Shown: positions 2,850-31,394, numbered from the stretch's first letter. The stretch: 43,256 nt of DNA from a virus (IMGVR_UViG_3300046710_000084:1-43256); one strand, 5' to 3'. The notes: generated by a model not told the origin, from the sequence alone. Numbers and translations are program-made.

Positions 2850-3274
2850 TATGAGCCCTCGTTATCCCTGATGTACTGTAGGTTTATCTGTACGATATGC
2901 CATGCGTTTGAACCCTCAAGCATGGTTGTGAGTGGTGTCGGTTCCAAAGAGCCAGTGAAGAAGCAATCAAACTTACTGCCATAGTGGTCAGTAAGAGTAA
3001 TCACGTCAGAGGGAACTGCGTTAGGATTTGTCAATCTCCAGAGTGTCCTTAGGTCTGTCATGTCTCCATAGTCGTTACCCTGGTCGTCCTCAGGAACACG
3101 CAGGACGTACATGAATGCCCTGAGGATTGGGCCAGAGGCTTTGTCTGGAGTGCCATCTACGGCGAACCTGAGACTATCTGTACGTGGTTCGGGAACCTTC
3201 AGGTCAATCGCCTTGAACCACTTTATCAGAGAACCGTTGCTATTCTCAAGGACGATATACTTATTTGTAGCCAT
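2849..3274 (-). CDS. Distal tail (Dit)-like / minor tail protein, 141 aa
   Basis: Directly after the TMP-slot gene with TAATG coupling at both ends. Size and position are typical of Dit-like genes; function is inferred from synteny. Confidence 0.55.
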   Translation of the reverse strand: MATNKYIVLENSNGSLIKWFKAIDLKVPEPRTDSLRFAVDGTPDKASGPILRAFMYVLRVPEDDQGNDYGDMTDLRTLWRLTNPNAVPSDVITLTDHYGSKFDCFFTGSLEPTPLTTMLEGSNAWHIVQINLQYIRDNEGS

Positions 3275-6200
3275 TACAGTTCCTCCTCCACAGCTTTGAC
3301 GACATAGCGCTTGAGCTCTTCGTTGCCGATGTTGACGATAATCAAGGCTGGCTCACGTTCTCTCCTATCAGATGCGACAGTAGATTTCATGCTTGTTGAG
3401 TCCCATGGCTTGTAGGGAGTAATCTTGCCGTTGACGTTTGGAACGAACCATTCTGGCTTACCATGCTCACCAACCACTTGAGGCTCTCCAGCACCTATCG
3501 GGCTGCCAGTAGCAGACATGTGAACTTGTTGGATATGAGCATTCAATTGTGACGCTGGCCCTGTCCAGTCACTAGCAATTGGACAAGTGACATTGGGGTC
3601 ATTACCAGAAGGAGGATTGCCACCAGACTGTGGTGTACCACCGAGAAGAGCTACCCACTCCTTGAGCTTGGTGTCCCAAAGGGTAACAAAGTCTACACCA
3701 TTCTTCTGGATATCCTCAGTCATGGTCTGCTGTTCGAGCATGGTGGCACTGATGCCAGCTTGCAGGGTAGCATAGTCGGCTGCGTCCTGAGCTTGTTTAG
3801 CCTGAATGCCTACCATCTGTTTCTGGAGTTCCCACTGCTCACGCTGATACTCACGCTGAAGGTCACGTAGCTGAGTCTCCAATACTACACGTTGCTCGAA
3901 GAACTCTTTTTGCTTGGCGATGCCTTCCTCTTGGAACTTTTGATTTTCCATGAACTGTTGCTTCTGAAGGTCAAAGCGTTCATCCTCAAGAGCCCACATT
4001 TCTTCCTGGCGCTTGCGGTTCTTATCAATCTGGTCGCCTTCCTGGTCATGGGTAATCGTAGCACGAGACATCTGGCGCTCAGCCAATCGGCGGTCACGCC
4101 CTGTCATAAAGCGTACATTCTCCTGGAAGTCTTCGACTTGCCAACCCCACTGCTGGTTACGCTGCTGGTCTTGAGTAACCCAATCCTGGCGTGTCCAGCC
4201 ACGCTGCATATTCATCTGCGTCTGCTGCATACCCCAATTTTGCTGAGCTTGCTGCTGCTGCATCTGGAGACCTTGCTCCTGACGCTGGAAGCCCCATCGC
4301 TGTTGCTCGTATCCAAGGTTCGTCGTCTGGTCTTGGATGCCCCACATCTGAGGCGTGTATTTCATAGCGAGAGCTAACTGAGCCGCAGAGTTGCCAGCAT
4401 AGGCAGCTTGGTTCTCTGCCTGTTGTACCATAAGATAGTTCTGAGCACCCTGGAGACCAGCCATCGCAAAGTTAGTGCCAGGAACCTGATAGCCTTGCGA
4501 GAATGCCTGACCTACCCCGCCCTTCCAGTTCATAGATGAACCGAGGTTCTGTTGTAGCATCCCAAATAGTGGGTGTGATGCACCAGACACAGTGAAGGCT
4601 GGAGCGTTGAGAGGCATTCCTGCCATCCCCATCGGAGCATTCGGCCCCCAAATATCACGGCTTGCCATAAACCCTGGTATCTGAGTTTCAGTTCCAGGGA
4701 TGTTCAAGCCATTGGCTACGCCCTGAGTAAGGGCATAGGGCTCGAATTGAGCTATACCCTGTATCATGTTCTTATAGTAATCGTTATAGGGTGTACCCAT
4801 TGGCGTTACCCTGGCTTCTGGCATACCACTAGCTACCTCAGCTTGCCAGTTTAGCATAGAGAGAACATCTGCCTTCTGCGGCTCTCGTAGAGACCATCCC
4901 ATCGCCATCTGTTCGGCGGCGGCAGCACCCCACTGAGTCTCCTTCGCAAACCTTGTGATTTGCTGCGGAGTTCTATTTGCCTGTAGATATTCCATCTGAG
5001 GCTGAGCGACACTATAGGGTACTCCCTGCTGCATAAGCATTTCTCTGGCAGCGAGCAATTGGTCTTGAGAACCCTGCTGTATAATTCTCTCTGATGGAAC
5101 CATTGACTCCATCTGAGCTCTATAGTCCTGATAATATTGTTCTGTCTTTCCAGGTACTAGGGAGCGCTGCATAGCAACCGACTTAGCTAAGTCAGACATT
5201 TCATCCAGCATCTTCTGGAGCTCACCGACACTTTTCCCGCTGAGACCCTGCTGAGTAGTCCATGCTTCAGTGTCAGTCCTGCCAAGATAGTTAGACTGGA
5301 TTGCGCCAATCTGGTTGACCAGTTGGCTTACATTCTCGGCTTTCTGAGACCTGATTGCCTCTATCCCTAACTCTTCCTGAGTGGGGGTATGTGTTAGCAT
5401 AGCAGCGTTTGGCTGCTGGACATTCCACCCGAACTGCTTTTGCTGTTGCCACTGCTGCATTTGGTTCGTGAAAACTCCAGCCTGTGGTGTGCCAGCATAC
5501 TGACCAAGGGTAGATGTATAGTTCTGTAATTGAGTCCAGTCCATGCCCTGAGTTGCATAGGTAGCGGCAGTACCCATTTGCTGAAGTACACCCTGTCCAG
5601 CCTCAAGATACTTGGACATCGTTGGCGTCATCGTTCCCATTGACTGAAGGAAGGCTTGACCTAGTTGTCCACCACCATATTGAGCTCCGTAGCCCCTACC
5701 AGTCAACGTCATAATATTTGACATCACCTCAGGTGACATACCAGTCTGCTGCATGTAGGCGGCTACCTTGGAGTACTGGTCTTGAGCAATGCCAGTGGAA
5801 GCGCCAAAGGAGTAAGCCTTCGCCACGGCCTCAGGAGAGAGCTCTGGATTTTCCTGAAGAATAAGGCGCATCGCTCTGATGTTGGCTTTGTTCGCTTCCT
5901 CTGCTGTAAGTTTGCCACCATGCATCGTACCAAGTTGAGAGACCATCGAAGCTGGTGTAGCACCACGGCCCATAAGGAAACCAACTTCTTGGTATCCCTG
6001 AGTAGCCTCTTTGGTTCCAGATGGATTTAGTATTTGAGCTATAGTGTCAGTAAGACTAAATATCTGACCTATTGCCTCGCCAGGAGTAGACCCAATCCTC
6101 GAAGCATAGGCCATTCTCTGACCTACAGGTTCAGGGTTCTGAGCTTTCTGAGCACCTGTTCCGATTAGAGATGCTGCCGCCAAAACTCCACCAATCGCTG

Positions 6201-9200
6201 GAGCGTACTTGGATAGCATAGAGTCTTTACCACCAAGGCTACCAATCCAGGCTGCATACCCAAAGCCACCAAGACCAGCTACGGCTGTATTGTAAACATC
6301 CGATAGCCCAGGTGTGGTTTGAGCAAATGTCTGAAGACCTGGAAGTCCCTGAACTTCACTGCCATACAGAGCCTTTAGGTTCTGTATACGTTGTGCCTGA
6401 TTGTATGGCATGTATGGTGTGCCAGACATCTGTCCTGCTGCCCCGCCAAAGACACCCTCTAGCTGAGCAGCCTCAGCGCCACTATAGGTCATGCCTCCAG
6501 TGGCTAAACCGAACATACGACCAGCGAACATCATACCCCATCCACCAAGAGCCTTGCGAGCCATGCCCCCAAAGCCAGCCAGTCCCCTTGGTTGTGCTTC
6601 TCCTGGTAGTACACCAGCCAATTCTTCATTTCTAGCAGCTTCAAATTTTGCTAGGTCTTCCGCTTGCTTGATGCCACGAGGAACAATACCAGCTATCCTC
6701 TCTAGCTGTCCTGTGGCATTTCGCTGAAGAAGACCAGCTTCCTCAAGAGGCCCACCCACCTTCTCGGTCTTTATCTGCGCCGATATCTGAGAGCCTTCTT
6801 TGACAAGTCGAGTCTCCTCGTTCTTGGCAGTGTTGTAATCTATGGAGCCCTTCCTTAGGGCTTCCATATTGTCGTATAACTTCTGAGATATTGTTGAAAG
6901 TTTCTCGAAGTGAGCAGCGAGAACTGACCCCATAGGAGCGCCAGCGGTATCTTTGGTCTTCGTGACCTCGAAGGCTTTGGATGCAGTGATTAGAGGTACT
7001 CCAGCCTGACCCTCTTGTGTTGATGTGTCACGCACCTGACGTGCCAAATCTATAACTTGGCTTCGCTGTGCCGCTGGTAATTTGTCGAAGGCTATTTGAC
7101 TTTCGTTCTTGATGACCTGTCCAGCAAGTCTGTACATCTCGTGCAACTGCTGTCCTGGCTTCTGGAAACCACCAAATTTCTTGGTTATATCCTCGGAGCT
7201 CATATTAGCCAATGCCGCAGATGCTTCAGCTACAGTGGTAACTGAGGTTCCAGTAACAGCGCCTAGCTTTGCAAATAGAGCCTGATTAGCTGCATAAACT
7301 CCCCTATTCAGGTCTGGAGCGCCAGAACTCGTCTGTGGGAAGAATTGGTTGTACTGCTGTAAGAACCTGTTAGCTTGAGCGGTTGGGTCAACCTGTCCAG
7401 GCTTGGGAGCCAAAGGAACTCCACCACTTGGAGCAACAGGAGCACCAGTTGTGCCACCAGGGGCTACAGGGGTTCCAGCCGTAGGAGCGCCACTTCCAGT
7501 GGGAGGAGCGTATCTTCCAACCTGATTGACAAAATTGCTATTGTCAAGTCGTTTGTTTATCAGTTGCTCCATACGTGCCTTGCCAAGAAGAGTCGGAGCC
7601 TGACGTTGTTCTCCAGCCAGACGAGCTAACTCTTCTGCATCTTTTTGAGTATAGCCACCAAGAACTGGAGTGGTGGGTATGGCAGTGGGAACAGTGGTAG
7701 CGGCTGGAGGGGTAGCGGCGGGAGGTTGCACTGGAATAGTGGCCTGTTGACTCAGAGGCGTCTGAGCTTGAGTAGTACCACTAGTAGTACCAGTTGCTCC
7801 AGGCATAGGTGGCATAAATGGCATTCCTGCAAATGCAGAGCCCATACCAGACTGGATGACAGAGGGGCCTGTAGCCTGTGTCTGTGTCAAGTCCTGGTAA
7901 GCGCCTACACCAATCGAGCGTAGGGCTTTGTAGGCAGCACCCGCAGTATCCATCATCGCTCTCACATGAGAGAGAGGTTGTCCTGCCGCCTGTAATTGCT
8001 TCTGACGTTGTTCCCAATAAGCTGGAGCGGCTGCGGCGATGTCCCACATCTTGGCAAGCGACCTTGGTCTGGCAGCCAGCACATCTCTTGAGCCAGCGGC
8101 TATCTGCTGTGTAAGCTCATCGTGCTGTGTAGGGTTAGAGACATACGAAGTGGTAATCCCTGCGCCCCAATATCCAGGCTGATGTTGCTCTTCAATCATA
8201 CCCTGAATAGCTCCGACATCGGCGTTAGCGCCCTTCTCGATTTCAGTAGCCAATGGACTACCAGCCTGAACGAATGTCGGACGAGAACCAAAGCGACCAG
8301 CCAATAAGTTCTCTTGTGCTTCTTTATATTCAGCCTCGGTCTCAAAGCGTGAGCGCAGTGGTTGGAGTATCCGCTCAGCGGCAGCTTCACCTTCTTTACC
8401 ACCCCTGGCAACATCCTTCAGGTTTTCTTCAATTGTCCAGGGAGTAACACGTGACTGTAGCTTGGCTGCTGGTAGACGCTCTTTGATGATTTGCTCTCGT
8501 GTAATACCAGCGCTTACGTGCTTGAGTTCCTCGAATTGCATGAAGGACTCTTGCCCAGGTCTACGTACATTGTGTACAAAGTCTTCGGTTGCAGACACAA
8601 TGGTTTCATGCTGCTGACCAGAGAGTTTACCTCTCCATGTGAACGGAGAAGACCAGGGGAACGCAGGATTGCTGGCTTCCACACTTTCGAGTCTACCAGT
8701 GTCTTCGTTATAGCGCATGGGATTGACACTCTTCCATCCAGCCTTTTCTCCCATGATAGCTCCAAGTCGAGCCTCCATGATAGTGCCAGCTTCTAGGTAC
8801 TTATTCCCCTCAGATGGGAAAAGCATATTGGACAGCTTGAATGGATTTTGATATCCAAGGAACTTTCCAACAGAATAAACATTGGATGCAAGTAGGGACT
8901 GTTCACGATACTCTTGGCGAGGCCTCTTACCCAATGTGGTGTTAGTCTCGTATTTGGGGCCGACTCCAGCCAGGGCTGGAACTTCGTGACCACGTATCTC
9001 TACAGGCATATCTGCTACCTGTTCGTACATCGTGCCGAGCTCAGAGGTCAGCCCCATCTTACCAAAGCCCAATAGGTTCTGGATGTTACCCAATCCCCAT
9101 GCAAGAGTATTATTGACACCCCTACCAAGGTTCTGAGCTCCACGCATGAACTTCATAGCTGTATCAGCAGGGAATAATTTACCCTTCATCATATTGAAGA

Positions 9201-12200
9201 GTGGTTGCTGAAGAGCGGCATTCTGCATGAGTAATTGCCCTTCTTCAGTCTGAGCAAATGCATCTGGAGGTTGCCACCCAGGTTCATTGAGAGCCTTCGA
9301 TGCTACAGCCTTGCCGAACATAGCTCCGAGGATAGGCATATTGAACATCTTGAGGCGGTTTTCGTCCTGAGCGTAATTGGCCCTGAACCAATCCATACCA
9401 GCATCACGCATCGCCTGAGCCTTCTCGACTATCGTTCCCTTGCCCTGATAAGGGCCAGTGAGTGCCTCTTGTAGACTTGTCTGCTCATAGTACTGGCGCT
9501 CCATCTCCAAATTCGGAGTACCAGCGTTCCTGGCAGCCTGTATGTCTCTCCACATATTCACATCGAGTGGATTACGCCCTGATGCTGGAACAAACGCTCG
9601 TGAGCCTTCAGGAGAGAAGTCGCTTGCCAGAAGTTCTGGAGTTGGTAAGAACTGCTTGCCCAATAAGTTGCTTGGCTGGATGGCAGAGTAGAGCATGTTC
9701 TGAGTAGTCTGCATGATACTCGCCTTGTCCAGGCGGTTATTCTGAGCAGCCTTACTCGTCCAGTTTATATCGTTCTTGTCATTCGTCAAACCCCATCCCA
9801 TGCCAAGGGTTCCAACGCCACCGCTAGTACCTGTTGACAAGAAAGACTTTTGGTACATCTCCACCAGTGGTGTTGGGTTCTTGGCTAAGATATCCAAGAA
9901 TGGCTGGTATAGCTGAGCACGAGTGCGGCGAGCTTGCATGATTTGTTCAGTCGTCCATCCACTGACGGATTGCTGAGCTTCTCTTGCCCTAGTGTAGTTA
10001 TAAGTACTACCCATCATGGTCTTTGAGCCCGACCATGTTTGTAGGCTTTCCTTGAGCATCTGGTATGGATATAGGCCAGCTTTGTCGTACTGTGTACCCA
10101 TCAGCTTAGCTATGGCAGCCATGCCACCAGAGCCAGTCTTTAGAATGTTCTGATAGAGCGGGTCAAATTGCTCACTCATGCCAGAGGGAAATAGTCCCTC
10201 AAGTATCTTGCGATAAGGGACACCAGCGACCTCTCGAAGACCAGTCTCAACGCTTGGTCTGAGCTCGCCCTTTCTGGTGAATGCCCCAAACTGTACGGAC
10301 AAATTTCCACTCTTCCCACGGCGAGCACTTGTGATGCCCATCGCAGCCCACAACTGGTCTAAGTCAAAGTCGCCACCAAGAATGGAGGATAGTCCAGCCC
10401 CAATACGAAAGACGGAGTTGGACATACCACTTGCAATAGGCACTGCCGAGCCCCTACGTTCTAGCTGTTGACTTGTGACAAGGTTGCCAAAGAACGCAGA
10501 GCCCTTACCTTCTAGCAGAGGCCATCTACCGCCAGAGATAGGAAGCCCCATCTCTTTGACGTATTGCTTCACTGCTGAGGGCATCCGTATCTTGGAGTTC
10601 TTACCCTGGATAGCGTTCCACATCTGGTTTACGTCTTCTTCAGTTGGTTCAACACCAATGCCAGTAAGACCATGACGAATAGATGCTCTGGCGAGCTCTT
10701 CAGGAACATAGACCTCGTTCTGTTTCAAGCCCTGCCAGTATGAATAACGAGCGTTTGTGATAGGCACATCGCTTCCGAACAGTGCTTTATTGCCTTCGGT
10801 CTTCACGCCCTCGGAGAGTCCAAACCTCTTAGCGAGGTAGTTATATATCTTATTCCCACCAGACATGACAGCATCGGGGTCATGGTAAGTAGAACCCTCA
10901 ATGCCCTGGCGAATAGCACCCTGAGCCATGTTCCATAATCGGGTCTTATCTTCTCCAGTGACACTCTCTTCTGCCTGAGTACGAATGGCATGAGTGGATG
11001 GTAGGTAGTACCCTGGCGCTGTCTCAAAAGCAAGAGGTCTGGTCTTCAGGGTATCAGGTTCTACATTCGGGAAGTATTCCTGAAGTTTAGACTCGAAGGC
11101 TGTCAATCCCGCAAGGGTCGAACCACTCCTACCAAGGGATGACATCAAGCCCACGTCCGATGACATCTTGCTCGCCATCTGCTCAGTGATGGTTGTAGAC
11201 TCTGGTATTTCAAAGCCTGAGGTTCCTCTTGCCCTATCTACCATGGATAGAGCGGTCAATTGAGCCGCTCCCCATCGTGCAGGGTTCCTCATCTCGTGTA
11301 TCTTCTGAGCCTCAAGCCCACGTGACAAATTACCAGCAGCTTCAGTATCAAGAGTGGACAGTCCAAGAGCAGCAGCGTAGTCAGGAGCCTTGGCTGTAAG
11401 TAGTCCAGCGATTTCAGCATTAGCTCTACCACCACCGCTCCACTCTAGGCCAGCACTGGATATACCTGTAACCGCAAAGCCAGGGATACCATGCGTCCTC
11501 ATCCTCTGACCATTCTCGGCTTGCGCTGCAAAGCCAAATTGTTTCTGAAATGCAGCTTCAGACTCAGCAGCACCCATGTTGGGATTGGCAAGCTGATAGG
11601 GAGATAGAAGGGTCTGATACTCTTGCTCTTCATACATCCTGGATACCTGGGTGGTCATGTCCGAACCCACAAAGCCTGTGCCATATCTCCTCAGATTTGT
11701 AAGGTTCTGAGGAGACTGAGCCATGGTGTTGAGTTCAGTCTCAGACATCTGAGAAAGTTGCTGAGTAGTTCTACCACCAAGAAAGATGCGCTGTAGGATA
11801 TCTCTACCAACCTCATGCGCTGGTAGTCCCATAAGTTCACTCATGCGGTCAATATCAAGACGAGCCGCAGGGTTCTGAGCCCTGGCTGTTCTGGTCTCTC
11901 CAAGCACTGTAGTAACACCCTCGTACTGTTGTGCAAGAGCCTGAGCCTCTGCACCAGTCTTCTGAAGCTCAGATAATCTGAGGTCTTCAGCGTACTGAGA
12001 GAGTAGTCTCTCTTGTCGAGTGGCATTCAATCCACCGAGGGAAGTAATCATCTTCTCTGGTAATGACTTTATTTCAATGGACGTTGTAGTGATGGGAATA
12101 GGCGACTTTGTGCCAACGTTGATTACTGGTCTGCCAGCTTCTTCGGTAAGACCAATCTTCTCGCCTTCTCCAGCCCACTTAGCGTTTACGTCAACAAATG

Positions 12201-13779
12201 AGTTAGGAAACTCCAGGTAAGCCTTATTGACTGTCTCGTTGGTAGTAACACCAAACCCAAGCCTCGCCTGAAGTGCGGCTATCTCTTTGTTGGTAACTTC
12301 TCTGAGCTCACCAGCAGCAAGACGGTCAGGGTCATAGGACTCGCCATAGCCTGAGTACGCATTACGATACTTAGGGATGACTAGCTGGTGTTGACCAAGG
12401 ATAAGGTTTTGAGCTCCCATGCGTTCCTCAAGAGGAACTTCTGGAAGGTTCTCAAGTTGACCTTTCTGGTTTACTATCCTGCCCATGGAGACATTCGCAT
12501 AAGTCCACTTATTGCTTGATGGAACAATCTCTCCAGCGTGGTGTGGGACATTGATATTGATATCACCCTGGATTAGCCCCTCAATGTTTTCTGCAACAAC
12601 GTAGCTTGGGGTCTTACGAAAACCCATTGCGCCAATCTTTATCCCCATATTCTCTGGATAAAGTGTACCGCCTCCAGGTTGTAGGGCTTCCTGTGGGGTA
12701 TAGAGATTAGTCGTGACAAATCCAGCCTCAGGGATACGACCACCTACCTGTGCTGTAGTAAGGCGATAGCCAGCACCAAAGCCCCTTTGCGGAATGGGGG
12801 TTGGAGCTATTGGCTGTCGATTGAAGTCCAGGGGTTCGGCTGTATCTCTGCCCTCAATAAGGTTCAAGTGCTTTGACATCGAAGACGTAGGCAGATATCC
12901 GAGGTTGCCCCTGGCTGCATAGTGGAAGTACTCACGTAAACGGCGGGTCTCTCCACCACTCATACCTCTGTCCTGAGCGTAACCATATTCTCTCAGGGCT
13001 GAGCCAAAGGTGGATGTATAGTTGGGTTGACCAGGAGGAGCCTGTACGTAGATGGGAGCATTGGTCTCTATCGTATGATAGGTATACTCATTCATACGGC
13101 GAGCCTGTTCCATCTGAGCAACACCAGCGGCCTTCTCATCTGCAAAGACGTTGGATAGCTGAAGAGTCTTAGCAGCATTCTGGACAAGCGATGGAGCGGA
13201 GCGTTTATTGATGAGCATCGTTCCAGCGGCTACCGAGATGTCTGCATTCTCGTCAGCACCTTCAGCAGCGATGTTGTACAAATGACTCTGCACGTCAGCA
13301 TTAGTGTTGCCCTGAGCTCTTTCAGTACGGACTGTCTCGAATGACGTGGAGAGTGCCGCAGCAAAACTAGCTGTCGGGCCTCGTAGTACCTGTTGGATAG
13401 TAAATGGGTCTTTAGCGGTTCTGGCACGATTGCCCTGCTGAGCACCTAGCTGATAACTTCTTTCAAGTGTGCCAGCGAACACATAGCCATAATCGCCTCT
13501 ACGTGTCATCAACTGCGGAGCCCACTCATTCACAGGGGCAGCATTTTGATTGCCATAGTTGGTGGTAAAGTTCGATTGTGCAGGAAGATTTATATTGAGA
13601 TTGGTGGATACGGTCTCGTTGCCACGAGTATGCGAGATGTGAAAGAAACTCGCTTCTGGTAACACCTGACCACGTGGGGTCTTGCGCTCGATGTACGAAA
13701 CTGCGTACTCTGGCCCCAAAATGGACTCAAGATATTTCCCAAAGTCCTGCATGTTTGGCTTATTGAAATTGGCTGGCAT
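3274..13779 (-). CDS. Giant tape measure protein fused to a putative two-barrel RNA polymerase and a YqaJ-like nuclease domain, 3501 aa
   Basis: Follows the frameshifting tail chaperones (canonical TMP slot). C-terminal part has Gly-rich hydrophobic segments, Q/E coiled coil and the TMP-type end motif SATGSPIGAGEPQVVGEHGKPEWFVPNVNGKITP. N-terminal part has KWAGEGEK (aa ~534-541), NEVYVPEELA, GRWPLL (R1085) and GGDFDLD (D1137-D1141). Confidence 0.75.
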   Translation of the reverse strand: MPANFNKPNMQDFGKYLESILGPEYAVSYIERKTPRGQVLPEASFFHISHTRGNETVSTNLNINLPAQSNFTTNYGNQNAAPVNEWAPQLMTRRGDYGYVFAGTLERSYQLGAQQGNRARTAKDPFTIQQVLRGPTASFAAALSTSFETVRTERAQGNTNADVQSHLYNIAAEGADENADISVAAGTMLINKRSAPSLVQNAAKTLQLSNVFADEKAAGVAQMEQARRMNEYTYHTIETNAPIYVQAPPGQPNYTSTFGSALREYGYAQDRGMSGGETRRLREYFHYAARGNLGYLPTSSMSKHLNLIEGRDTAEPLDFNRQPIAPTPIPQRGFGAGYRLTTAQVGGRIPEAGFVTTNLYTPQEALQPGGGTLYPENMGIKIGAMGFRKTPSYVVAENIEGLIQGDININVPHHAGEIVPSSNKWTYANVSMGRIVNQKGQLENLPEVPLEERMGAQNLILGQHQLVIPKYRNAYSGYGESYDPDRLAAGELREVTNKEIAALQARLGFGVTTNETVNKAYLEFPNSFVDVNAKWAGEGEKIGLTEEAGRPVINVGTKSPIPITTTSIEIKSLPEKMITSLGGLNATRQERLLSQYAEDLRLSELQKTGAEAQALAQQYEGVTTVLGETRTARAQNPAARLDIDRMSELMGLPAHEVGRDILQRIFLGGRTTQQLSQMSETELNTMAQSPQNLTNLRRYGTGFVGSDMTTQVSRMYEEQEYQTLLSPYQLANPNMGAAESEAAFQKQFGFAAQAENGQRMRTHGIPGFAVTGISSAGLEWSGGGRANAEIAGLLTAKAPDYAAALGLSTLDTEAAGNLSRGLEAQKIHEMRNPARWGAAQLTALSMVDRARGTSGFEIPESTTITEQMASKMSSDVGLMSSLGRSGSTLAGLTAFESKLQEYFPNVEPDTLKTRPLAFETAPGYYLPSTHAIRTQAEESVTGEDKTRLWNMAQGAIRQGIEGSTYHDPDAVMSGGNKIYNYLAKRFGLSEGVKTEGNKALFGSDVPITNARYSYWQGLKQNEVYVPEELARASIRHGLTGIGVEPTEEDVNQMWNAIQGKNSKIRMPSAVKQYVKEMGLPISGGRWPLLEGKGSAFFGNLVTSQQLERRGSAVPIASGMSNSVFRIGAGLSSILGGDFDLDQLWAAMGITSARRGKSGNLSVQFGAFTRKGELRPSVETGLREVAGVPYRKILEGLFPSGMSEQFDPLYQNILKTGSGGMAAIAKLMGTQYDKAGLYPYQMLKESLQTWSGSKTMMGSTYNYTRAREAQQSVSGWTTEQIMQARRTRAQLYQPFLDILAKNPTPLVEMYQKSFLSTGTSGGVGTLGMGWGLTNDKNDINWTSKAAQNNRLDKASIMQTTQNMLYSAIQPSNLLGKQFLPTPELLASDFSPEGSRAFVPASGRNPLDVNMWRDIQAARNAGTPNLEMERQYYEQTSLQEALTGPYQGKGTIVEKAQAMRDAGMDWFRANYAQDENRLKMFNMPILGAMFGKAVASKALNEPGWQPPDAFAQTEEGQLLMQNAALQQPLFNMMKGKLFPADTAMKFMRGAQNLGRGVNNTLAWGLGNIQNLLGFGKMGLTSELGTMYEQVADMPVEIRGHEVPALAGVGPKYETNTTLGKRPRQEYREQSLLASNVYSVGKFLGYQNPFKLSNMLFPSEGNKYLEAGTIMEARLGAIMGEKAGWKSVNPMRYNEDTGRLESVEASNPAFPWSSPFTWRGKLSGQQHETIVSATEDFVHNVRRPGQESFMQFEELKHVSAGITREQIIKERLPAAKLQSRVTPWTIEENLKDVARGGKEGEAAAERILQPLRSRFETEAEYKEAQENLLAGRFGSRPTFVQAGSPLATEIEKGANADVGAIQGMIEEQHQPGYWGAGITTSYVSNPTQHDELTQQIAAGSRDVLAARPRSLAKMWDIAAAAPAYWEQRQKQLQAAGQPLSHVRAMMDTAGAAYKALRSIGVGAYQDLTQTQATGPSVIQSGMGSAFAGMPFMPPMPGATGTTSGTTQAQTPLSQQATIPVQPPAATPPAATTVPTAIPTTPVLGGYTQKDAEELARLAGEQRQAPTLLGKARMEQLINKRLDNSNFVNQVGRYAPPTGSGAPTAGTPVAPGGTTGAPVAPSGGVPLAPKPGQVDPTAQANRFLQQYNQFFPQTSSGAPDLNRGVYAANQALFAKLGAVTGTSVTTVAEASAALANMSSEDITKKFGGFQKPGQQLHEMYRLAGQVIKNESQIAFDKLPAAQRSQVIDLARQVRDTSTQEGQAGVPLITASKAFEVTKTKDTAGAPMGSVLAAHFEKLSTISQKLYDNMEALRKGSIDYNTAKNEETRLVKEGSQISAQIKTEKVGGPLEEAGLLQRNATGQLERIAGIVPRGIKQAEDLAKFEAARNEELAGVLPGEAQPRGLAGFGGMARKALGGWGMMFAGRMFGLATGGMTYSGAEAAQLEGVFGGAAGQMSGTPYMPYNQAQRIQNLKALYGSEVQGLPGLQTFAQTTPGLSDVYNTAVAGLGGFGYAAWIGSLGGKDSMLSKYAPAIGGVLAAASLIGTGAQKAQNPEPVGQRMAYASRIGSTPGEAIGQIFSLTDTIAQILNPSGTKEATQGYQEVGFLMGRGATPASMVSQLGTMHGGKLTAEEANKANIRAMRLILQENPELSPEAVAKAYSFGASTGIAQDQYSKVAAYMQQTGMSPEVMSNIMTLTGRGYGAQYGGGQLGQAFLQSMGTMTPTMSKYLEAGQGVLQQMGTAATYATQGMDWTQLQNYTSTLGQYAGTPQAGVFTNQMQQWQQQKQFGWNVQQPNAAMLTHTPTQEELGIEAIRSQKAENVSQLVNQIGAIQSNYLGRTDTEAWTTQQGLSGKSVGELQKMLDEMSDLAKSVAMQRSLVPGKTEQYYQDYRAQMESMVPSERIIQQGSQDQLLAAREMLMQQGVPYSVAQPQMEYLQANRTPQQITRFAKETQWGAAAAEQMAMGWSLREPQKADVLSMLNWQAEVASGMPEARVTPMGTPYNDYYKNMIQGIAQFEPYALTQGVANGLNIPGTETQIPGFMASRDIWGPNAPMGMAGMPLNAPAFTVSGASHPLFGMLQQNLGSSMNWKGGVGQAFSQGYQVPGTNFAMAGLQGAQNYLMVQQAENQAAYAGNSAAQLALAMKYTPQMWGIQDQTTNLGYEQQRWGFQRQEQGLQMQQQQAQQNWGMQQTQMNMQRGWTRQDWVTQDQQRNQQWGWQVEDFQENVRFMTGRDRRLAERQMSRATITHDQEGDQIDKNRKRQEEMWALEDERFDLQKQQFMENQKFQEEGIAKQKEFFEQRVVLETQLRDLQREYQREQWELQKQMVGIQAKQAQDAADYATLQAGISATMLEQQTMTEDIQKNGVDFVTLWDTKLKEWVALLGGTPQSGGNPPSGNDPNVTCPIASDWTGPASQLNAHIQQVHMSATGSPIGAGEPQVVGEHGKPEWFVPNVNGKITPYKPWDSTSMKSTVASDRREREPALIIVNIGNEELKRYVVKAVEEEL

Positions 13780-14066: not shown

Positions 14067-14534
14067 CTATTCCCCCAAGTCGGTGTCGCCCACGCCTCCC
14101 ATAATCCAGTGCGGGTTCATCTCTTGGACTTTTGAATGAATTTCGGCGGCTGTCTCATCGTCAAGTGTGCCAAAGGCATCGTTGAACTGGTCAGTTCTCA
14201 TGTCCAGAAACGGCCCATTAGCATCACTCTTGAAGCGAAACAGAGGTTCTTTGCCATCAGCCTTGGTGATATTGCATCCTACCAGTGTCAACTCGACTTC
14301 CTTGGAGATAAGGTCATACAAAGGAAGACGGAAGATGACACGCTCTTTCCCGCCGTTATTGTCGGCAAGCTCACGAATGTACTCCGCAAACAGCTTACTA
14401 CGCAGGGAGTTCTGCCGTACTGTTGCCAGACGGATAGTGACAATGGTCTTTTCATCGGTTGGAATACCTTGGCGCTCGTCTAGCTTCTCAAGTTGAAACT
14501 CTTTTGTCTCAGGTGGTGATACACGTGCTGGCAT
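14067..14534 (-). CDS. Tail assembly chaperone (gpG-like), 155 aa
   Basis: Acidic ~150-aa gene two genes before the TMP. AGGAG RBS; ends TTG GGG GAA TAG. Confidence 0.75.
   Translation of the reverse strand: MPARVSPPETKEFQLEKLDERQGIPTDEKTIVTIRLATVRQNSLRSKLFAEYIRELADNNGGKERVIFRLPLYDLISKEVELTLVGCNITKADGKEPLFRFKSDANGPFLDMRTDQFNDAFGTLDDETAAEIHSKVQEMNPHWIMGGVGDTDLGE
14070..14076 (-). other. Programmed -1 ribosomal frameshift site GGGGGAA
   Basis: G GGG GAA immediately before the gpG-like stop, and the -1 frame joins 13786..14052. The same heptamer is the known gpG/gpGT slip site of mycobacteriophage L5. Confidence 0.75.
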
Positions 14535-14543
14535 GTTAGTCTC

Positions 14544-15182
14544 CTAATGTACTCGTTTGAGATACCCCGAAGGGTTCCATGTGATTAGATATTGCTCGCA
14601 TTCTCGGTCAACCTCAAATGCGTGGTTCTCTTTCAAGAAGGTCTGTATAGCTGGATAGGGGCCGCTGTAGTTCCTTGGTAGTCCATGATTGGCGATACTG
14701 TCTTCCACGATGTAATAACCACCCTTCTTTATAAGGGGTGAGTATAATCGTAGACAAGCAAGTGTATGCTTTTCGTCATGGCTGGAGTCCTCGATGACTA
14801 TGACCTTCTCAGGAAATTTTATTTGCTCAAGTATTTGAGGTAAGACATCCAGGGCTGCCCCTGTAAGGAACATACAACGTGGATGCTGTCTCGCTAATGG
14901 GTATATTTTATCACAGATATCAACACTGATGATACGCCCCTTGCCTATTCTGTCAAGCCAGTGTGCCATCATTAGAGCACTGCCACCAAACTTACTGCCA
15001 ATCTCTATGATGACATCTGGCTTATAGTTGAACAGGAGTTGCTGATATACCCATGCATCCAGAGGAAATTTGTAGGTTGGGATGCCGAAGTATGTCGCTT
15101 TCTTCAGAATACCATCTTGAATGTGTCGAAACACAGTTTCAAGGTCTACTCTTTTCTCAACAGCCTGTTCGTGAGTAATCAT
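14544..15182 (-). CDS. CmcI (cephalosporin hydroxylase / rhamnosyl O-methyltransferase) family SAM methyltransferase, 212 aa
   Basis: Motifs K.PLDAWVYQ, PDVIIEIGSKFGGS, IISVDI, VIEDSSH, GGYYIVED, ITWNPSGYLKR. Start placed at MITHEQ (ATGA overlap with upstream stop). Confidence 0.85.
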   Translation of the reverse strand: MITHEQAVEKRVDLETVFRHIQDGILKKATYFGIPTYKFPLDAWVYQQLLFNYKPDVIIEIGSKFGGSALMMAHWLDRIGKGRIISVDICDKIYPLARQHPRCMFLTGAALDVLPQILEQIKFPEKVIVIEDSSHDEKHTLACLRLYSPLIKKGGYYIVEDSIANHGLPRNYSGPYPAIQTFLKENHAFEVDRECEQYLITWNPSGYLKRVH

Positions 15183-15796
15183 TTTCGTGTAGCGCTCCAG
15201 ATGCGACCATAGGTGTGATAGTCCTTCCATAGACCAGAAGGTATCACAATTTCGTCAATGACCTTGGTGACACCCACTTGGCGTGTATGGTAGTCATGGA
15301 AGGCGATATGTCCACCAGAGGGAATGAACCCAAACCAAGCAGTGTAGTCTGCAAGTACATTTGCAAACTTGTGGCTTGCGTCAATGAAGAGCAGGTCAAT
15401 GGGTTTGGTGCGCCGAGATGCAGCCTTTAGGCTGCTAATCATCTTTGGGATAACAAAATCACTCAGACCCATCTGAGCCACTTGGTCTTGGAATATCTGC
15501 CAAGTTTCCTCACTGGAGTAGTGAGCGAAGGTCTTGCCAACACCCTTTGTCCAAAGGTCAATGGCATAGATTTTGGCTGTGTTATTGCCAGCCTCTTTAG
15601 CAGCAGAGGCCATAACACAAATCGACTTGCCACGGTGGGAGCCAATCTCAACAATACATCCACCCATGGGGATATTCAAGCCAAGCCACGAAAGATGCTT
15701 GACCTCAATATCGTTGATGCCTGTGGTGCTACCCTTGTCGCCAGACAAGAGTGCATTCAGTTCATCATGTTTGTTCAAAATAGAAAGCTGTTCCAT
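15179..15796 (-). CDS. Class I SAM-dependent methyltransferase (Methyltransf_24-like), 205 aa
   Basis: IVEIGSHRGKS, IYAIDLW, IDLLFIDASH, GGHIAFHDY. Confidence 0.85.
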   Translation of the reverse strand: MEQLSILNKHDELNALLSGDKGSTTGINDIEVKHLSWLGLNIPMGGCIVEIGSHRGKSICVMASAAKEAGNNTAKIYAIDLWTKGVGKTFAHYSSEETWQIFQDQVAQMGLSDFVIPKMISSLKAASRRTKPIDLLFIDASHKFANVLADYTAWFGFIPSGGHIAFHDYHTRQVGVTKVIDEIVIPSGLWKDYHTYGRIWSATRK

Positions 15797-16853
15797 CTCG
15801 TTTACTCCTTATGTATTCTGTTATTGCCCTAGCAGCCCTCTTCGCAGATTTGCCCATGTAGGGATACAACTCATCAATCATCTTGAGTCTTTGTGGATAA
15901 AATTCTTCTGGATGAGCTATGGTTCTACGAACTGCTGTTAGTAGCTGGCTAGGTTTGTTCACACAAATTCCTATGTCTGTGTAATCCCAAAACCTTATTC
16001 CCCAATGTACATCTCTACGGAACCAAGGTGCGTTCAATATTATAACAGGTTTACCAGTACAGGAAAACTCGTACATCGTTGACGATGCATCGTTGATATA
16101 GATATCGCAACGCTTCATAATCTTACTGAAGTCGGGCTCGATGTCAGTAATACCACAGTTGTTATAAAGCGGAATTAGCTTATTGATGATTTTGGGGTGT
16201 CCGTGTCCTACAATATGAAATTTCTGTGCAAGTTCTGGAAGTATCTCCAGGTAGAAGTCAAAGGCGTTTCCAGCCTCAGGACAAACGGCTTTACCGTCCC
16301 AATGAAAGGATATCCCAATTGTAGGATTTTCTTTCTTGGTTGGCATCTCTAGTGAGATGGTATCCATCTTTGGAGTACCTATAATAACCTGTGGCGCTGT
16401 CGGGAAAGTCTTAGCTGTCTTATCGTATATATTCTGATTTGGAGGAAGGAACAATGATACTTTACTACGCAAGCCCTCTCCACCACCATAGCCTGGATGT
16501 ACTTCAAAACTAAGTCCTACCCCATGCTCCATGAGAAAGAATGGTCGCATAGAGAATTGATGCCACGCTTGCTCCATATCCCCATAAGCACAGGTAACGA
16601 TTGGCGACATGCCTGGAGGTCGTACTAGGAGTTTGTTCCCTCTTACGCTATGGGAGTGTAGGGTCTCGTACTCAAAGCCCTTGGTTTTAGCATATTCTTC
16701 AATGCATTCAGGAATATAAAACGTACCACGCTCAGATGGTCTGAGCTCGTTCCAAACTGGTAATAAATGGTCTATAAAATGAGTTCTACGTGCAAAGAAG
16801 TCGGGCTTCATAGCCCAAGACGGTTTGTGTACCGTGGGTGCGTATTCTGCCAT
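15765..16853 (-). CDS. GT-B fold transferase (CDP-glycerol glycerophosphotransferase / glycosyltransferase-like), 362 aa
   Basis: MEHG, IIGTPKMD, GHGHP and CDIYINDASSTMYEFSCTGKPVIILN resemble the TagF/TagB motifs G.PR.D, HP and D.LITD.SS..EF...KP. Confidence 0.7.
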   Translation of the reverse strand: MAEYAPTVHKPSWAMKPDFFARRTHFIDHLLPVWNELRPSERGTFYIPECIEEYAKTKGFEYETLHSHSVRGNKLLVRPPGMSPIVTCAYGDMEQAWHQFSMRPFFLMEHGVGLSFEVHPGYGGGEGLRSKVSLFLPPNQNIYDKTAKTFPTAPQVIIGTPKMDTISLEMPTKKENPTIGISFHWDGKAVCPEAGNAFDFYLEILPELAQKFHIVGHGHPKIINKLIPLYNNCGITDIEPDFSKIMKRCDIYINDASSTMYEFSCTGKPVIILNAPWFRRDVHWGIRFWDYTDIGICVNKPSQLLTAVRRTIAHPEEFYPQRLKMIDELYPYMGKSAKRAARAITEYIRSKRDGTAFYFEQT

Positions 16854-16914: not shown

Positions 16915-17997
16915 TTATGAGCCAGCGGAAGGCCAGACGTAACTGGCGGTCTCATTCTTCAGGATAAAGGTTGCGTAATCACCAGCAGTGGGTTCGAGAG
17001 CCGTACCAGTGAACCGAGCGATGATAGCCTGTCCACCAGCAAGCTGGATGGGGCCATTCATCTGCCACATGATGTTCTGTGCGGCGATGTTCAACTGGAA
17101 CTTCTGCGTTCCTGAGCCAGCGATACCAGTACCAAGCATCGCAACGTCCATGGAGCCTGTCATCGGGTTTGAAGACCAAGTTGTGCCGACATTACTGCCA
17201 GTCAAGATGGCCTTGTACAGTCCAGGGTTGTTCCATTTGATTGTGCAATCAAATGTAATCTGGCGCTGGAGGATAGTGATATCTTCCAGAGCAGGAGACC
17301 CATAGACCTTCTCCTGACGGATGTCAAGGTTCTGGTTTGCGAAGGTGACACGAGCACCAACAACAGGGAGTTCCTCTCCAGTCAAGCCACCACCAGTGAA
17401 CTTGATAAAGCCACCGAGCTCACAACCAACGGGGATTGAGTCCCAGTTTTCGTAAGCGGCGTTTTGCCAAGACCAGCCAGCGATGCTGTCTGCGAGTGCG
17501 AACTCACGTCCCATGAAGTCCCACCGAGCAGTGATGGGCGAGTCGTTGGGCAGGGTGAGAGCGAGGGCAATCGGTTTTACATCGGTATAAAGCTCACCGA
17601 TATCCGTGTTGGGGTCACTCTCTTTCATGGGGATATATTTCCGCAGGGAAAGCCAGCGCACGAAGCTCTGGTCAGACGCAAGCGGTTTGAAGGTGTGTGT
17701 ATACACACCACTGGCGGGCGCTCCAGTAGAGCAATCTCCGAGGGTTGCGTAAAGCAACCATCCGAGAGAGTTCTCCAGACGAGGCATGAGTTCCACGCCT
17801 CCACCCACGACATATCCTGCCTTATAGGGGAAGGTAGGGAACGGGCCTGAGCCGATTTCCATCGGGCCTACCCGAATATCATCATTCACGCCGAGGTCGA
17901 TGAGCGTAGCCTTGTGCTTCCAGAAGAGAGTCGCAGCCTCTTCCATCGCACCCTGAGGGCCAAACCCAAAGACACCAGCTTGAGCAGTTACAGCCAT
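16915..17997 (-). CDS. Major tail tube protein, 360 aa
   Basis: Position after head-tail genes and before the chaperones. G/T-rich beta-type sequence with YTHTFKP, typical of siphovirus tail tube proteins. Confidence 0.75.
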   Translation of the reverse strand: MAVTAQAGVFGFGPQGAMEEAATLFWKHKATLIDLGVNDDIRVGPMEIGSGPFPTFPYKAGYVVGGGVELMPRLENSLGWLLYATLGDCSTGAPASGVYTHTFKPLASDQSFVRWLSLRKYIPMKESDPNTDIGELYTDVKPIALALTLPNDSPITARWDFMGREFALADSIAGWSWQNAAYENWDSIPVGCELGGFIKFTGGGLTGEELPVVGARVTFANQNLDIRQEKVYGSPALEDITILQRQITFDCTIKWNNPGLYKAILTGSNVGTTWSSNPMTGSMDVAMLGTGIAGSGTQKFQLNIAAQNIMWQMNGPIQLAGGQAIIARFTGTALEPTAGDYATFILKNETASYVWPSAGS

Positions 17998-27209: not shown

Positions 27210-27242
27210 AATCTGTCACTATTGATTGGATAGTGACAGATT
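27210..27242. repeat. Perfect 13-bp inverted repeat (hairpin/terminator/operator)
   Basis: AATCTGTCACTAT-7 nt-ATAGTGACAGATT between the two paralogs. Confidence 0.7.
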
Positions 27243-27554: not shown

Positions 27555-27559
27555 TATTT

Positions 27560-27740
27560 TCGGGCAAAAAAATTTGGGGGGGAGTGTTATTGATGGTTGG
27601 GGAGATGTGAAAGTGAACATACCCCTTATATATCATCAATAAAACAATAAGGCAGAGATACCGTAGTCCCCTGCCCCCATCCCCCCTCCCCCCTACTCCC
27701 CCAGGGGGAGGGAGGCCTACCCCCATGCCTTGAAAGGAGG
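27560..27740. other. Divergent non-coding strand-switch region with A7-T3-G7 and poly-C/poly-G runs (candidate genome end, pac site or origin)
   Basis: GCAAAAAAATTTGGGGGGGAG and CCCC-TG-CCCCC-AT-CCCCCC-T-CCCCCC-TACT-CCCCC-A-GGGGGAG; gene orientation switches here. Confidence 0.5.
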
Positions 27741-28301: not shown

Positions 28302-29576
28302 ATGTCTGGTAAGAAACAATCTAACGGGTACGTAGAGTACACATGCCCAATCTGCCATGATGTGTTTCAGTTCAACGGCAAGGCTAAGGATGCTAAGTAC
28401 TTCCATGATGTGGAATATCATCCCAAGCAAGAGCTTCCTGCTGTGCCTGAGCCTGTTGCTGAGCCCATTGTAGTAGCGCCTGTAGTGGCTGCACCTGTAG
28501 CCCCTGCTGCTGCTGCCCCTAGCACAGTAAGCGATGTAACCGCAAGGTTGCTTCGTCTTGAAACACTGATTGCTGAGAAAGTGCAGAAAGAAATCGCCCT
28601 TGCTAAAGACGAGCAAGCACAGTACGTTGATGTGTCATGCTTGCAAGCACAGGTAGAGAAGATTGAGAGCAAGACTCTGCCCATGCTTATGTCTGTGCCT
28701 GAAGGCTATCGTGACAATGATGTCATTGATATGCTACAGCACGAGCTTGCTTCTGCAAAGAGCAAGTTAGCACTAGCGATGCTCTCTCCTGCATACCTCA
28801 GGGCTGAGGCTGCTAAGGCTGCCCTTGACAGGGCAGTACGTATAGAGCAGGCTACTAAGCAAGTAGCACAGGACAATGCTGCTGCTAACAACGTCTTCTC
28901 TGCCATTGGTAAAGAGTGGCTTGATGAGACTACGCAGCGCTTTGATGCTATGGTCAATGGTGACATTTGGATACCACGCCCTAAGCGTGAGCCAAATCGC
29001 ATCTGCTTCATGCATGACTTCTGGTGGGGCTTGCAGACACATGCTGCACGTGGCTTAGTCGATGAGGAAGGTACTTATCTACGTCCTCCTATGCCTAAGA
29101 ACGAGCGCACATGGGAAGCACTGGAGCCCTTAGTAGCAGAGGTCTTTGATGAGCTAATGGCTAAGTACAGCTTTGACTTCAACAAGACTAAGCACTATGA
29201 CATACGTGTTGACCTAAAGAAGGTTGATGCAGATGGCTTCATAGTCAAGGCTGATAGCAAGATTGTGCCTGTGTCCTATGCCCTGCCCTACAATGAGTGG
29301 CTTGCACGTATCAAGGGTATCATGCATCAGATATGGCGCAAGACATGGAATAGGCGTGATGTGAACGAGGCTAGTGCTATTGCTGAACTTGGTTATTATG
29401 GCAGTGGCAAGGAAGACTTGTCCAGAGAGTACTGCACGTGGGCAGGGAAGCAAGACGCAAAGACCAAGCTAGGTAGGATGACTAGCATGGAGTATGCGCT
29501 GTTGGCTGCCAAGGGTGAGTTACCCAAGGACGCCCCTGTGAAACAGCCTAAGGCCTCTTCCCGCAAGAGCAAATAG
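28302..29576 (+). CDS. Hypothetical protein, 424 aa (N-terminal CxxC, P/A/V linker, coiled coil)
   Basis: YTCPICH at the N-terminus; long open frame. Confidence 0.75.
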   Translation: MSGKKQSNGYVEYTCPICHDVFQFNGKAKDAKYFHDVEYHPKQELPAVPEPVAEPIVVAPVVAAPVAPAAAAPSTVSDVTARLLRLETLIAEKVQKEIALAKDEQAQYVDVSCLQAQVEKIESKTLPMLMSVPEGYRDNDVIDMLQHELASAKSKLALAMLSPAYLRAEAAKAALDRAVRIEQATKQVAQDNAAANNVFSAIGKEWLDETTQRFDAMVNGDIWIPRPKREPNRICFMHDFWWGLQTHAARGLVDEEGTYLRPPMPKNERTWEALEPLVAEVFDELMAKYSFDFNKTKHYDIRVDLKKVDADGFIVKADSKIVPVSYALPYNEWLARIKGIMHQIWRKTWNRRDVNEASAIAELGYYGSGKEDLSREYCTWAGKQDAKTKLGRMTSMEYALLAAKGELPKDAPVKQPKASSRKSK

Positions 29577-29600
29577 GCTGACTGACAAATCCTTTCTTTC

Positions 29601-30575
29601 ATGTCTAAGAAAACAGGAACCAATCCGATTACTGAAACAACCGCTGTAAACAATTCAAATATGGACACAACTCAAACACTTTCTCAAACCACTGTCGCTA
29701 CCCCCAACGTTGTTCTTGAGAACCCCAATGGCACGAGTCACCGTCTGGTCGTGTATAGCCGTTCAGACTGGAACCCCTCTACTGATTTATCCATGCTTGA
29801 CTTGTCCCAAAGTCGAGCGGCTCTCAATGGTATTGCTAAGTGGGTAGCTGGCGGCATCAAGGGCAGTGCAAAGCTGCTCATTGTTGCTCCAACTGTAAAG
29901 TTGGCTTTCTCCAATGGCACAGGTACATTTGCGTATGTCAGAAATGACTTCGTTCCAGGCGTAGATGACCTGACCATTGACGTAGATGGCACTCCGATAT
30001 TCCTGACTGTTGATGGTAAAGATGTTCCCAACACTCGTGGTTATCGCCGTTTGCACTTGGATGGTGGCGAGCTCTATGCTAAAGCATGGGAGCCTATCTT
30101 CACTCACAGTGATGAAGACCCCTTTGTGTATTGGTACTGCCGCTGCCTGAGCGCTATTCTGGAAGGCAACAATGTCTCTGTAAGCATCGGCCCGAAACTT
30201 CTGAGCGATGCTGAAGAGGTGATGAAGGTTGTAAATAGCCCCGATAAGGCTGCTGCGAATGATGCACGATTGTATGTTGGTCGTGTCTCTTCTCGCTTTA
30301 GCCAGGACGTAAGGGCTAACACAGCCGAGATTATTGGGAATGCTGTTGAGTCAGGACAGGGCATCAACGTTGGTGCATCTGATTTGATTGTTCCCCTTGC
30401 TGGTGGTGGTACTATCAGCTTGGTGCGCTTCAATAAGGTGACACCCATCCGTGTGATGACTGAAGGTGGACAGATTTTACGCCCACGGTTCCTGGCTAAT
30501 GACACAGACGTAGCTCGCTTGGCCTTCGCTTCAACGATGCGCCAGCAGAAGCTCTCTGTGGTTCTGACTCAGTAA
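29601..30575 (+). CDS. Hypothetical protein, 324 aa
   Basis: Long ORF with T/N-rich N-terminus. Confidence 0.75.
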   Translation: MSKKTGTNPITETTAVNNSNMDTTQTLSQTTVATPNVVLENPNGTSHRLVVYSRSDWNPSTDLSMLDLSQSRAALNGIAKWVAGGIKGSAKLLIVAPTVKLAFSNGTGTFAYVRNDFVPGVDDLTIDVDGTPIFLTVDGKDVPNTRGYRRLHLDGGELYAKAWEPIFTHSDEDPFVYWYCRCLSAILEGNNVSVSIGPKLLSDAEEVMKVVNSPDKAAANDARLYVGRVSSRFSQDVRANTAEIIGNAVESGQGINVGASDLIVPLAGGGTISLVRFNKVTPIRVMTEGGQILRPRFLANDTDVARLAFASTMRQQKLSVVLTQ

Positions 30576-31031: not shown

Positions 31032-31072
31032 TTCAGTCGTTGAAATTCAATGACTGAAATTCAATGACTGAA
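31032..31072. repeat. 13-bp unit TTCAATGACTGAA: two direct copies plus one inverted copy
   Basis: Direct copies at 31046-31058 and 31060-31072; inverted copy with 1 mismatch at 31032-31044. Confidence 0.75.
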
Positions 31073-31394
31073 TTATAGACTTGTTAGCAACACCCCTCCT
31101 ACCACTCTTGGTAATAGAATAGACATCATGCCAATCGCATTCCCTTCCTTCCCTATATCTGGTATGTTCCTAGTTCCCCATCGTAAGAAGAGTAGCTTAC
31201 GTGTGTACAAGATAAAGCGGTGGTGGTAGCATCTATCACATAAATGACAGGACAAGTACTTATATACTACGTGTTGATGCTTCTCCTGAGATTGAGGCGC
31301 TGTTTCCTAAGGACAATCTCTATCACACCTTATATGTGTGGGCAGTTATTAGGGATAACACGTTCATCGTTATCGAGAATGCCTACTGGAGAAA

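Follow-up and report, generated by a model that had tools for sequence, protein, structure and literature searches.

What are the sequence motifs of a multisubunit-type RNA polymerase (RNAP) doing in the gene that sets the tail length of a virus? The question is raised by one virus record of 43,256 bases (IMGVR_UViG_3300046710_000084:1-43256; this whole stretch is hereafter the window), to which near-identical DNA occurs in peat metagenomes and, among the sequencing runs listed, in no RNA data set, and by the giant open reading frame (ORF) of 3,501 amino acids (aa) on its minus strand. An earlier note on this DNA had proposed that a single-chain, two-barrel RNAP is built into the tape-measure protein (TMP) encoded there. 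We put at roughly 0.8 the probability that aa ~330-1400 of the giant form a one-chain, two-barrel, DNA-dependent RNAP that is packed in the tail, ejected into the host and transcribes the first phage genes, a reading that rests on sequence comparison.

The giant ORF occupies the tape-measure slot, as the earlier note had it; the gene order, together with a GGGGGAA run and an open -1 frame in the chaperone gene, confirms this. On the minus strand, a terminase-like gene, portal, scaffold-sized gene, major capsid, adaptor, 185-aa gene and tail tube (whose 26.6-bit Phage_tube_2 score sits just below the Pfam cut-off of 27) precede a glycerophosphotransferase, a pair of methyltransferases and then genes of 155 and 88 aa; next comes the giant itself, with one gene of 141 aa and a large tail gene behind it. 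Long tails as a rule have a frameshifted chaperone pair immediately upstream of the tape measure. Here GGGGGAA stands at the end of the chaperone gene in all eight loci inspected, and the -1 frame from the 155-aa gene is open into the 88-aa ORF in all three genomes translated. The order terminase-portal-capsid-tube-chaperone-giant-141 aa-large tail gene recurs in loci L008-L011, L098/L103 and L101/L104. The whole 3,501-aa protein has no match in Pfam or PHROG; within its likely tape-measure part, tryptophans are spaced every 18 residues at aa 3146-3218.

We gathered relatives to learn which residues of the putative enzyme are kept. Two protein searches yielded 17 relatives of the RNAP region, 15 of them 3,011-4,095 aa or 2,032-2,149 aa long, alongside a 560-aa piece and close duplicates; searches by locus added L008-L011, with the gene order of the window, and a capsid search added two more distant phages whose giants bear the same motifs (profile E 1.8e-14 and 1.2e-09). 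The resulting alignment, A5, holds 19 sequences (the window, six loci and 12 of the 17 protein relatives, with P0002, P0005, P0009, P0015 and P0017 omitted as near or identical to included rows) at 16-70% pairwise identity, median 32%. A bacterial genome collection yielded no relative of the RNAP region or of the capsid, so we assign no host; tblastn against 50,697 phage records gave two chance matches and no real ones.

All eight motifs named in the earlier note lie in the giant at the places and in the order it gave (table), and the residues on which it had built its case are conserved: D1137, D1139, D1141 and R1085 in 19/19 sequences, K534 and K541 in 17/19, where the misses resemble local misalignment in L103, L104 and P0018. 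DFDLD is the only DxDxD of the 3,501-aa protein. Between aa 330 and 1310 the alignment has 17 invariant columns, and of 25 aspartates in this region only the three of the predicted triad are invariant. The R-x-P motif, corresponding to Rpb1 R446/P448, lies 51-65 residues upstream of the triad in every sequence; E779 and Q1292 are likewise invariant, and D1296 is kept in 18/19. Among ORFs of at least 200 aa in the window and in two related genomes, G002 (82 kb, 100% complete) and G003 (80% complete), the giant alone matches the published filter for two-barrel RNAPs, [RK]xPx{20,100}DxDxD.

Several comparisons with known RNAPs weigh against the polymerase reading. When solved structures were searched with E as high as 10 allowed, neither the single region nor any of three profiles retrieved an RNAP, and Pfam and PHROG gave nothing for the RNAP pieces; hhalign against crAss virion RNAPs scored the giant family at P 0.017-0.053, weak and not significant, and a crAss hidden Markov model located the DxDxD in 0/20 giant-family proteins. 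The Atlas returned three unnamed viral clusters for the RNAP region at 0.85-0.87, which serve as leads only, and a profile of the catalytic half found no stand-alone relative of 584-2,000 aa among 8,000 candidates, itself weak evidence. The missing database link is expected, because RNAP families have little in common outside the DxDxD region, according to the accessible part of PMC10770324. Indeed, our positive control, the virion RNAP gp96 of phage P23-45 run by hhalign against 61 crAss virion RNAPs, reached P only 0.24, on the same motif as the giant family. As the whole-profile signal was weak even for this control, we scored conserved ungapped blocks instead.

For the C-terminal, beta-prime-like half we chose the six most conserved blocks by information content and scored each against 55-61 crAss sequences. 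As an ordered chain they scored well in gp66 of phage phi14:2, where 8/200 shuffles reached that score, and exceeded z 2 in 38/52 crAss proteins, the triad block accounting for part of the score; the chain did not rise above shuffles in gp96 (34/200 as high), gp64 (91/200) or YonO (96/200), which also counts against our reading. With the triad excluded, the R-x-P block ranked YRIP of gp66 first of 305 positions and RRP of gp64 first of 235, while not ranking RNP of gp96 first. Of 297 gp66 positions, the top rank went to 1540 with the 1249-1264 block (z 6.1), which we had widened by hand from 1253-1265 (the narrower version also ranked first), and to 1603 with the 1287-1299 block (z 4.8); the accessible text on gp66 puts its bridge helix at 1529-1559 and its trigger loop at 1598-1636 (bioRxiv 10.1101/2020.03.07.982082). 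The R-x-P, bridge-helix and trigger-loop blocks thus fall in register, in order and each on the matching gp66 element; family averaging favours conserved columns, so a figure of 1 in 300 per block would be too extreme. The block around R1011 gave no interpretable match.

These results bear on whether the motifs are coincidental, belonging to some large domain, structural or metal-binding, that has nothing to do with RNAPs. The lack of any database match to an RNAP, and an Atlas result made up solely of unnamed viral clusters below 0.9, would suit such a domain. The selective invariance of the three triad aspartates, the position of R-x-P ahead of them in every sequence and three blocks that put the correct gp66 elements first and in order are hard to reconcile with it, and we consider coincidence the least probable of the explanations weighed here, by a wide measure unlikely.

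The N-terminal, beta-like half is less well supported than the C-terminal half. The 537-545 block, which contains K541, ranked the invariant crAss lysine K1065 first of 765, AGLKG of gp96 second and AWKG of gp64 joint first. The others of the ten blocks tried in this half gave no consistent picture, and two centred on K534 and K571 failed to rank a beta-like site first in crAss proteins, a further point against the polymerase reading. K534 and K541 are likely the counterparts of Rpb2 K979/K987 and QDE-1 R738/K743 (PMC2919709), the evidence on exact equivalence of the pair being mixed. The earlier note had also matched SGGGRANAE to beta GGQRFGEME, and LKQNEVYVP to RPB1 L.IDQVGVP; neither pairing was confirmed, both stretches lacking a clear match in a comparison with crAss proteins, gp96 and gp64.

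Counterparts of seven of the eight two-barrel invariants listed in the accessible part of PMC2919709 (three Asp, the R and P of R-x-P, the basic pair and the MgB Asp) are present in the giant. The eighth is the exception: between aa 86 and 568 no column reaches 80% Asp/Glu that could stand for the MgB Asp (Rpb2 D837, QDE-1 D709), and the conserved acidic residues E569, E779, E789 and D944 all lie C-terminal to the lysine pair. This gap too speaks against an RNAP, and would fit a two-barrel protein that is some other nucleotidyl transferase, making primers or short RNAs as QDE-1 can (PMC9508822, in the part accessible) and working with the adjoining nuclease-like domain. Two further features are compatible with such an enzyme: the fourth position of the triad motif is never glycine (L12, A2, W2, Y1, Q1, I1; Gly 0/19), and the early arms of G000, G002 and G003 hold no multi-copy promoter motif, against the 14 sites of P23-45. 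However, gp66 also lacks this glycine and is an active virion RNAP, its bridge-helix and trigger-loop elements are those matched by the giant's blocks, and the early arm diverges from the terminase arm as in P23-45. We therefore hold a transferase of another kind to be improbable, less remotely so than coincidence.

How does the predicted RNAP compare with known enzymes? The earlier note held that the virion RNAPs known to it (N4, crAss, phiKZ) are capsid cargo and not siphovirus TMP fusions; this premise is contradicted by gp96 of P23-45, a proven and crystallised virion RNAP of shown activity fused to a siphovirus tape measure (PMC10770324, from the part accessible). Of its proposal, the one-chain, two-barrel RNAP within the tape measure gains support, through conservation and the gp66 blocks; what falls is the novelty of the design. 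As in the giant, the RNAP motifs of gp96 (and of its counterparts in P74-26, G20c and TSP4) are N-terminal in a giant tape measure, gp96 is cysteine-free, and a YQxxxD helix, seen by eye and unranked in the block test, lies late in the module. In other respects the two differ. We detected no sequence similarity between gp96 and the giant family (0/4 gp96 relatives fall in the family; hhalign aligned away from the active site, at P 0.18-0.43), nor any BLASTP similarity between the capsid, tube and post-TMP proteins of P23-45 and those of the window. The gp96 loop reads DFDGD, whereas that of the giant reads DFDLD; gp96 has a short connector and no clamp, whereas 419-547 residues separate K571 from R1085 across the giant family; and gp96 carries membrane helices and an M23 peptidase where the giant has a PD-(D/E)xK-like domain. 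A scan for hydropathy > 1.6 passed no segment of the window's giant, and hence found no strong transmembrane helix, against four in gp96. P23-45 also encodes a further RNAP, of non-virion type, and carries 14 AT-rich promoters, in contrast to the absence of a second RNAP motif in G002 and G003 and to at most one conserved element in the window and its relatives.

The giant's best match at the level of blocks is gp66 (KC821624, 2,180 aa), through the R-x-P, bridge-helix and trigger-loop blocks; its DFDID likewise has a bulky fourth residue. As described in the accessible text, gp66 has no tape-measure fusion and a connector of ~140 residues. QDE-1 and YonO share with the giant the order and spacing of the basic pair, R-x-P and DxDxD (PMC2919709 and PMC9508822, in the parts accessible), the comparison with QDE-1 being made solely through residues quoted in those papers; neither is a virion protein, and D709 of QDE-1 has no counterpart in the giant. 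A literature search, with most subscription papers outside its reach, found no TMP-RNAP lineage besides the P23-45 type; look-ups by sequence and by place likewise came back empty. The TMP-fused virion RNAP is thus a known design, of which the giant family appears by sequence to be a distinct lineage; it differs in its loop, inter-barrel span, accessory domain, absent second RNAP motif and promoter pattern.

Does the enzyme travel with the tape measure, or is it set free beforehand? A real polymerase could be cleaved from the tape measure at assembly and work inside the cell in late or middle transcription, not being injected. The variable Pro/Thr/Gly linker between enzyme half and tape half would offer a place for the cut, and the P0018 homolog, only 2,149 aa long and without the C-terminal block, may be a cut product. 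Yet the enzyme half is as cysteine-poor as the rest (0-2 cysteines in each of 18 giants checked), gp96 was found full-length in virions (PMC10770324, in the part accessible), and the gene sits in the late arm, where a dedicated RNAP would serve no evident purpose as long as that arm is read by the host enzyme. We judge such intracellular release very unlikely, slightly less so than coincidence of the motifs.

The reading we prefer, delivery through the tail, leads to the following scheme, in which packaging, ejection, activity and timing are argued by analogy with gp96 and gp66. The giant would be threaded into the tail during assembly, unfolded or partly folded; we infer this because cysteine is nearly absent and because the 419-547-residue span makes the flat shape of gp96 unlikely. 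At infection it would leave the virion first and refold at the cell envelope into an active enzyme with the predicted double-psi barrels, which would transcribe the early arm while the DNA enters, starting at a single entry site around 27.6 kb. Later genes would then be read by the host RNAP, since the complete relative shows no second RNAP motif. The DFDID loop of gp66, an active virion RNAP, has a non-catalytic shape in the crystal (bioRxiv 10.1101/2020.03.07.982082, accessible part); because the bulky triad residue of the giant parallels that loop, the predicted enzyme may be self-inhibited until ejection.

A second putative enzymatic domain, overlooked in the earlier note, follows the RNAP module. 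The motif order of PD-(D/E)xK nucleases is E...PD...(D/E)xK...Q, and the conserved residues of aa ~1660-1780 fit it: E1669, D1733, E1751, K1753 and Q1775 are kept in 15-16/18 rows, and the D, E, K and Q are invariant in 5/5 diverse loci. Its nearest Atlas clusters have the restriction-endonuclease fold (Tox-REase-7, at 0.91 with only 128 of 256 features shared), and no Pfam, PHROG or PDB match falls below E 1. A nuclease fold is likely for this region, a shade less so than the polymerase is for its own. The predicted nuclease would be co-delivered and probably act on DNA, either the host genome or the entering phage end. It is dispensable, because a 3,011-aa member of the family (L008 9098-18133, G002; P0009) lacks it; P0018 is degenerate in the same region. 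In a distant relative (G009), the 4,023-aa TMP at L103 7207-19278 (-) bears an N-terminal exonuclease-like domain ahead of the RNAP motifs, matching PHROG 403, DNA polymerase exonuclease subunit, at E 7.4e-05.

We wondered where a tail-delivered RNAP would begin. The consensus AAGTGAAC[A/C]TACCCC is the only 15-mer that the window, G002 and G003 have in common in their divergence regions (0/300 shuffles); the single copy in the window, AAGTGAACATACCCC, lies between the structural and early arms. Counterparts stand at 27557 (-) in G002, 21120 (-) in G003, 65 (-) in L024 and 6015 (-) in L052, always 0.7-2.8 kb upstream of the terminase and facing away from it; that of L024 has two mismatches and lies 704 bases upstream. 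The element is present in 5/7 loci having upstream DNA; in L096 and L101/L105 it is missing ahead of the terminase, with up to three mismatches allowed. Scanning the collection gave 64 loci, of which one besides G002 and G003 is near a terminase: in G004 the element keeps its orientation, 849 bases upstream of a terminase that is only distantly related. The other 61 have no linked terminase or portal. A relative about 85% alike in run X5 retains the AAGTGAAC core, in a loose end, where its surroundings diverge, and the hairpin of the element is not conserved in G004.

G- and T-tracts like those flanking the element resemble phage DNA ends, and a packaging or terminus site is our first choice for it, at somewhat under even odds; a promoter for the virion RNAP is a candidate role that we hold more tentatively, and some other operator is unlikely. 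The idea that it is an obligatory partner of the RNAP is not supported, as the L101/L105 TMP has the RNAP motifs without the element. A sigma-70 scan was at chance (10 found, 9.1 expected). No ORF of at least 200 aa in G002, G003 or the window other than the giant has R/K-x-P followed by DxDxD, so no gp64-like second RNAP is evident, a very divergent enzyme being able to escape this search. The two large genes that open the early arm, of 424 and 324 aa, are candidate pre-early targets and candidates for host-takeover functions; both have homologs at the equivalent place in G002, and the second also in G003.

A bolder picture joins these points: an independent lineage of tail-delivered RNAPs with blocks nearer crAss than gp96, a tape measure serving as a tool belt (carrying the RNAP, a nuclease of restriction fold and, in one relative, a 3'-5' exonuclease), and the phage's only RNAP starting the early arm from the single site AAGTGAAC[A/C]TACCCC by the genome end. 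Taken whole it is doubtful.

Other features of these genomes are recorded here. In the window, a 284-aa protein with an internal DnaJ domain (34982-35836 (+); Pfam E 6.8e-21) is conserved in G002 at 42%; a terminator-like 14-pair hairpin lies at 27210-27242 between short leftward genes; and about 2.5 head-to-tail copies of a 14-base unit occupy a gene-poor stretch at ~31039-31075. No tRNA genes were found in 10/10 stretches of G002 and G003. Reading by eye, we take the early arm of L052 (2-2417 and 6864-9083, G004) to encode three proteins resembling ThiF/E1, JAB and E2, and the terminase of this relative apparently contains an intein. The two methyltransferases and the glycerophosphotransferase-like gene inserted between tail tube and chaperone in the window (14544-16853 (-)) have similar cassettes in L008, L010 and L011 and none in L009, L098 or L101; they possibly modify the virion surface.

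Table. Positions of the giant, its predicted parts and neighbouring features in the window (nt, nucleotides; aa numbers refer to the giant)
Feature	Position	Strand	Basis
Giant protein, 3,501 aa, 1 Cys: predicted RNAP module, nuclease-like domain, linker and likely tape-measure part	3274..13779	-	
Predicted two-barrel RNAP module, about aa 330-1400, limits approximate	9580..12792	-	conservation in 19 sequences, crAss gp66 block matches
NAKWAGEGEKIG	aa 532-543, nt 12151-12186	-	motif located in giant
K534 and K541, likely basic pair of beta-like barrel	12157..12180	-	17/19 each, spacing 7
PITTTSIEIK	aa 562-571	-	motif located in giant
K571, third conserved Lys	12067-12069	-	18/19 in A5
SGGGRANAEIAGLL	aa 781-794	-	motif located in giant
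LKQNEVYVPEELA	aa 1018-1030	-	motif located in giant
GGRWPLL	aa 1083-1089	-	motif located in giant
R1085-W-P1087, R-x-P motif of beta-prime-like barrel	10519..10527	-	19/19 in A5
ILGGDFDLDQ	aa 1133-1142	-	motif located in giant
DFDLD (D1137/D1139/D1141), predicted Mg-binding catalytic triad	10357..10371	-	19/19 in A5
Predicted bridge helix, aa 1249-1264	9988..10035	-	gp66 block match
KTMMGSTYN	aa 1253-1261	-	motif located in giant
Predicted trigger-loop helix, aa 1287-1299 (YQPFLD)	9883..9921	-	gp66 block match
LYQPFLDILAK	aa 1290-1300	-	motif located in giant
PD-(D/E)xK (restriction-endonuclease-fold) nuclease-like domain, aa ~1660-1780	8440..8802	-	conserved residues, Atlas clusters
Linker, aa ~1995-2130, rich in Pro/Thr/Gly, poorly conserved	7390..7797	-	sequence, alignment
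Likely tape-measure part, aa ~2130-3501, Gln/Ala/Gly-rich, conserved C-terminal block	3274..7389	-	
Tail assembly chaperone pair, 155 aa and 88 aa	13786..14534	-	GGGGGAA slippery run 14070-14076
Tail tube protein	16915..17997	-	Pfam Phage_tube_2 E 5.7e-06, 26.6 bits; PHROG 290 tail E 1.3e-10
Terminase-like gene	24384-26003	-	Pfam E 0.035, weak
Single-copy element AAGTGAACATACCCC between structural and early arms, pointing into early arm	27611..27625	+	
First two large early-arm genes, 424 aa and 324 aa, candidate pre-early targets	28302..30575	+	

If the polymerase reading is true, the fusion of an RNAP to a tape measure would be no hot-spring oddity; it would be found across a broad set of uncultured phages, which probably came to it by a separate route. 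It would also test a published idea, that gp96 shed its clamp to pass the tail tube: because the giant keeps an inter-barrel span of 419-547 residues, its passage would call for an unfolded state. The family offers 19 divergent sequences with a non-glycine catalytic loop resembling that of the self-inhibited crAss enzyme, and, with them, a co-delivered nuclease candidate and one 15-bp promoter candidate.

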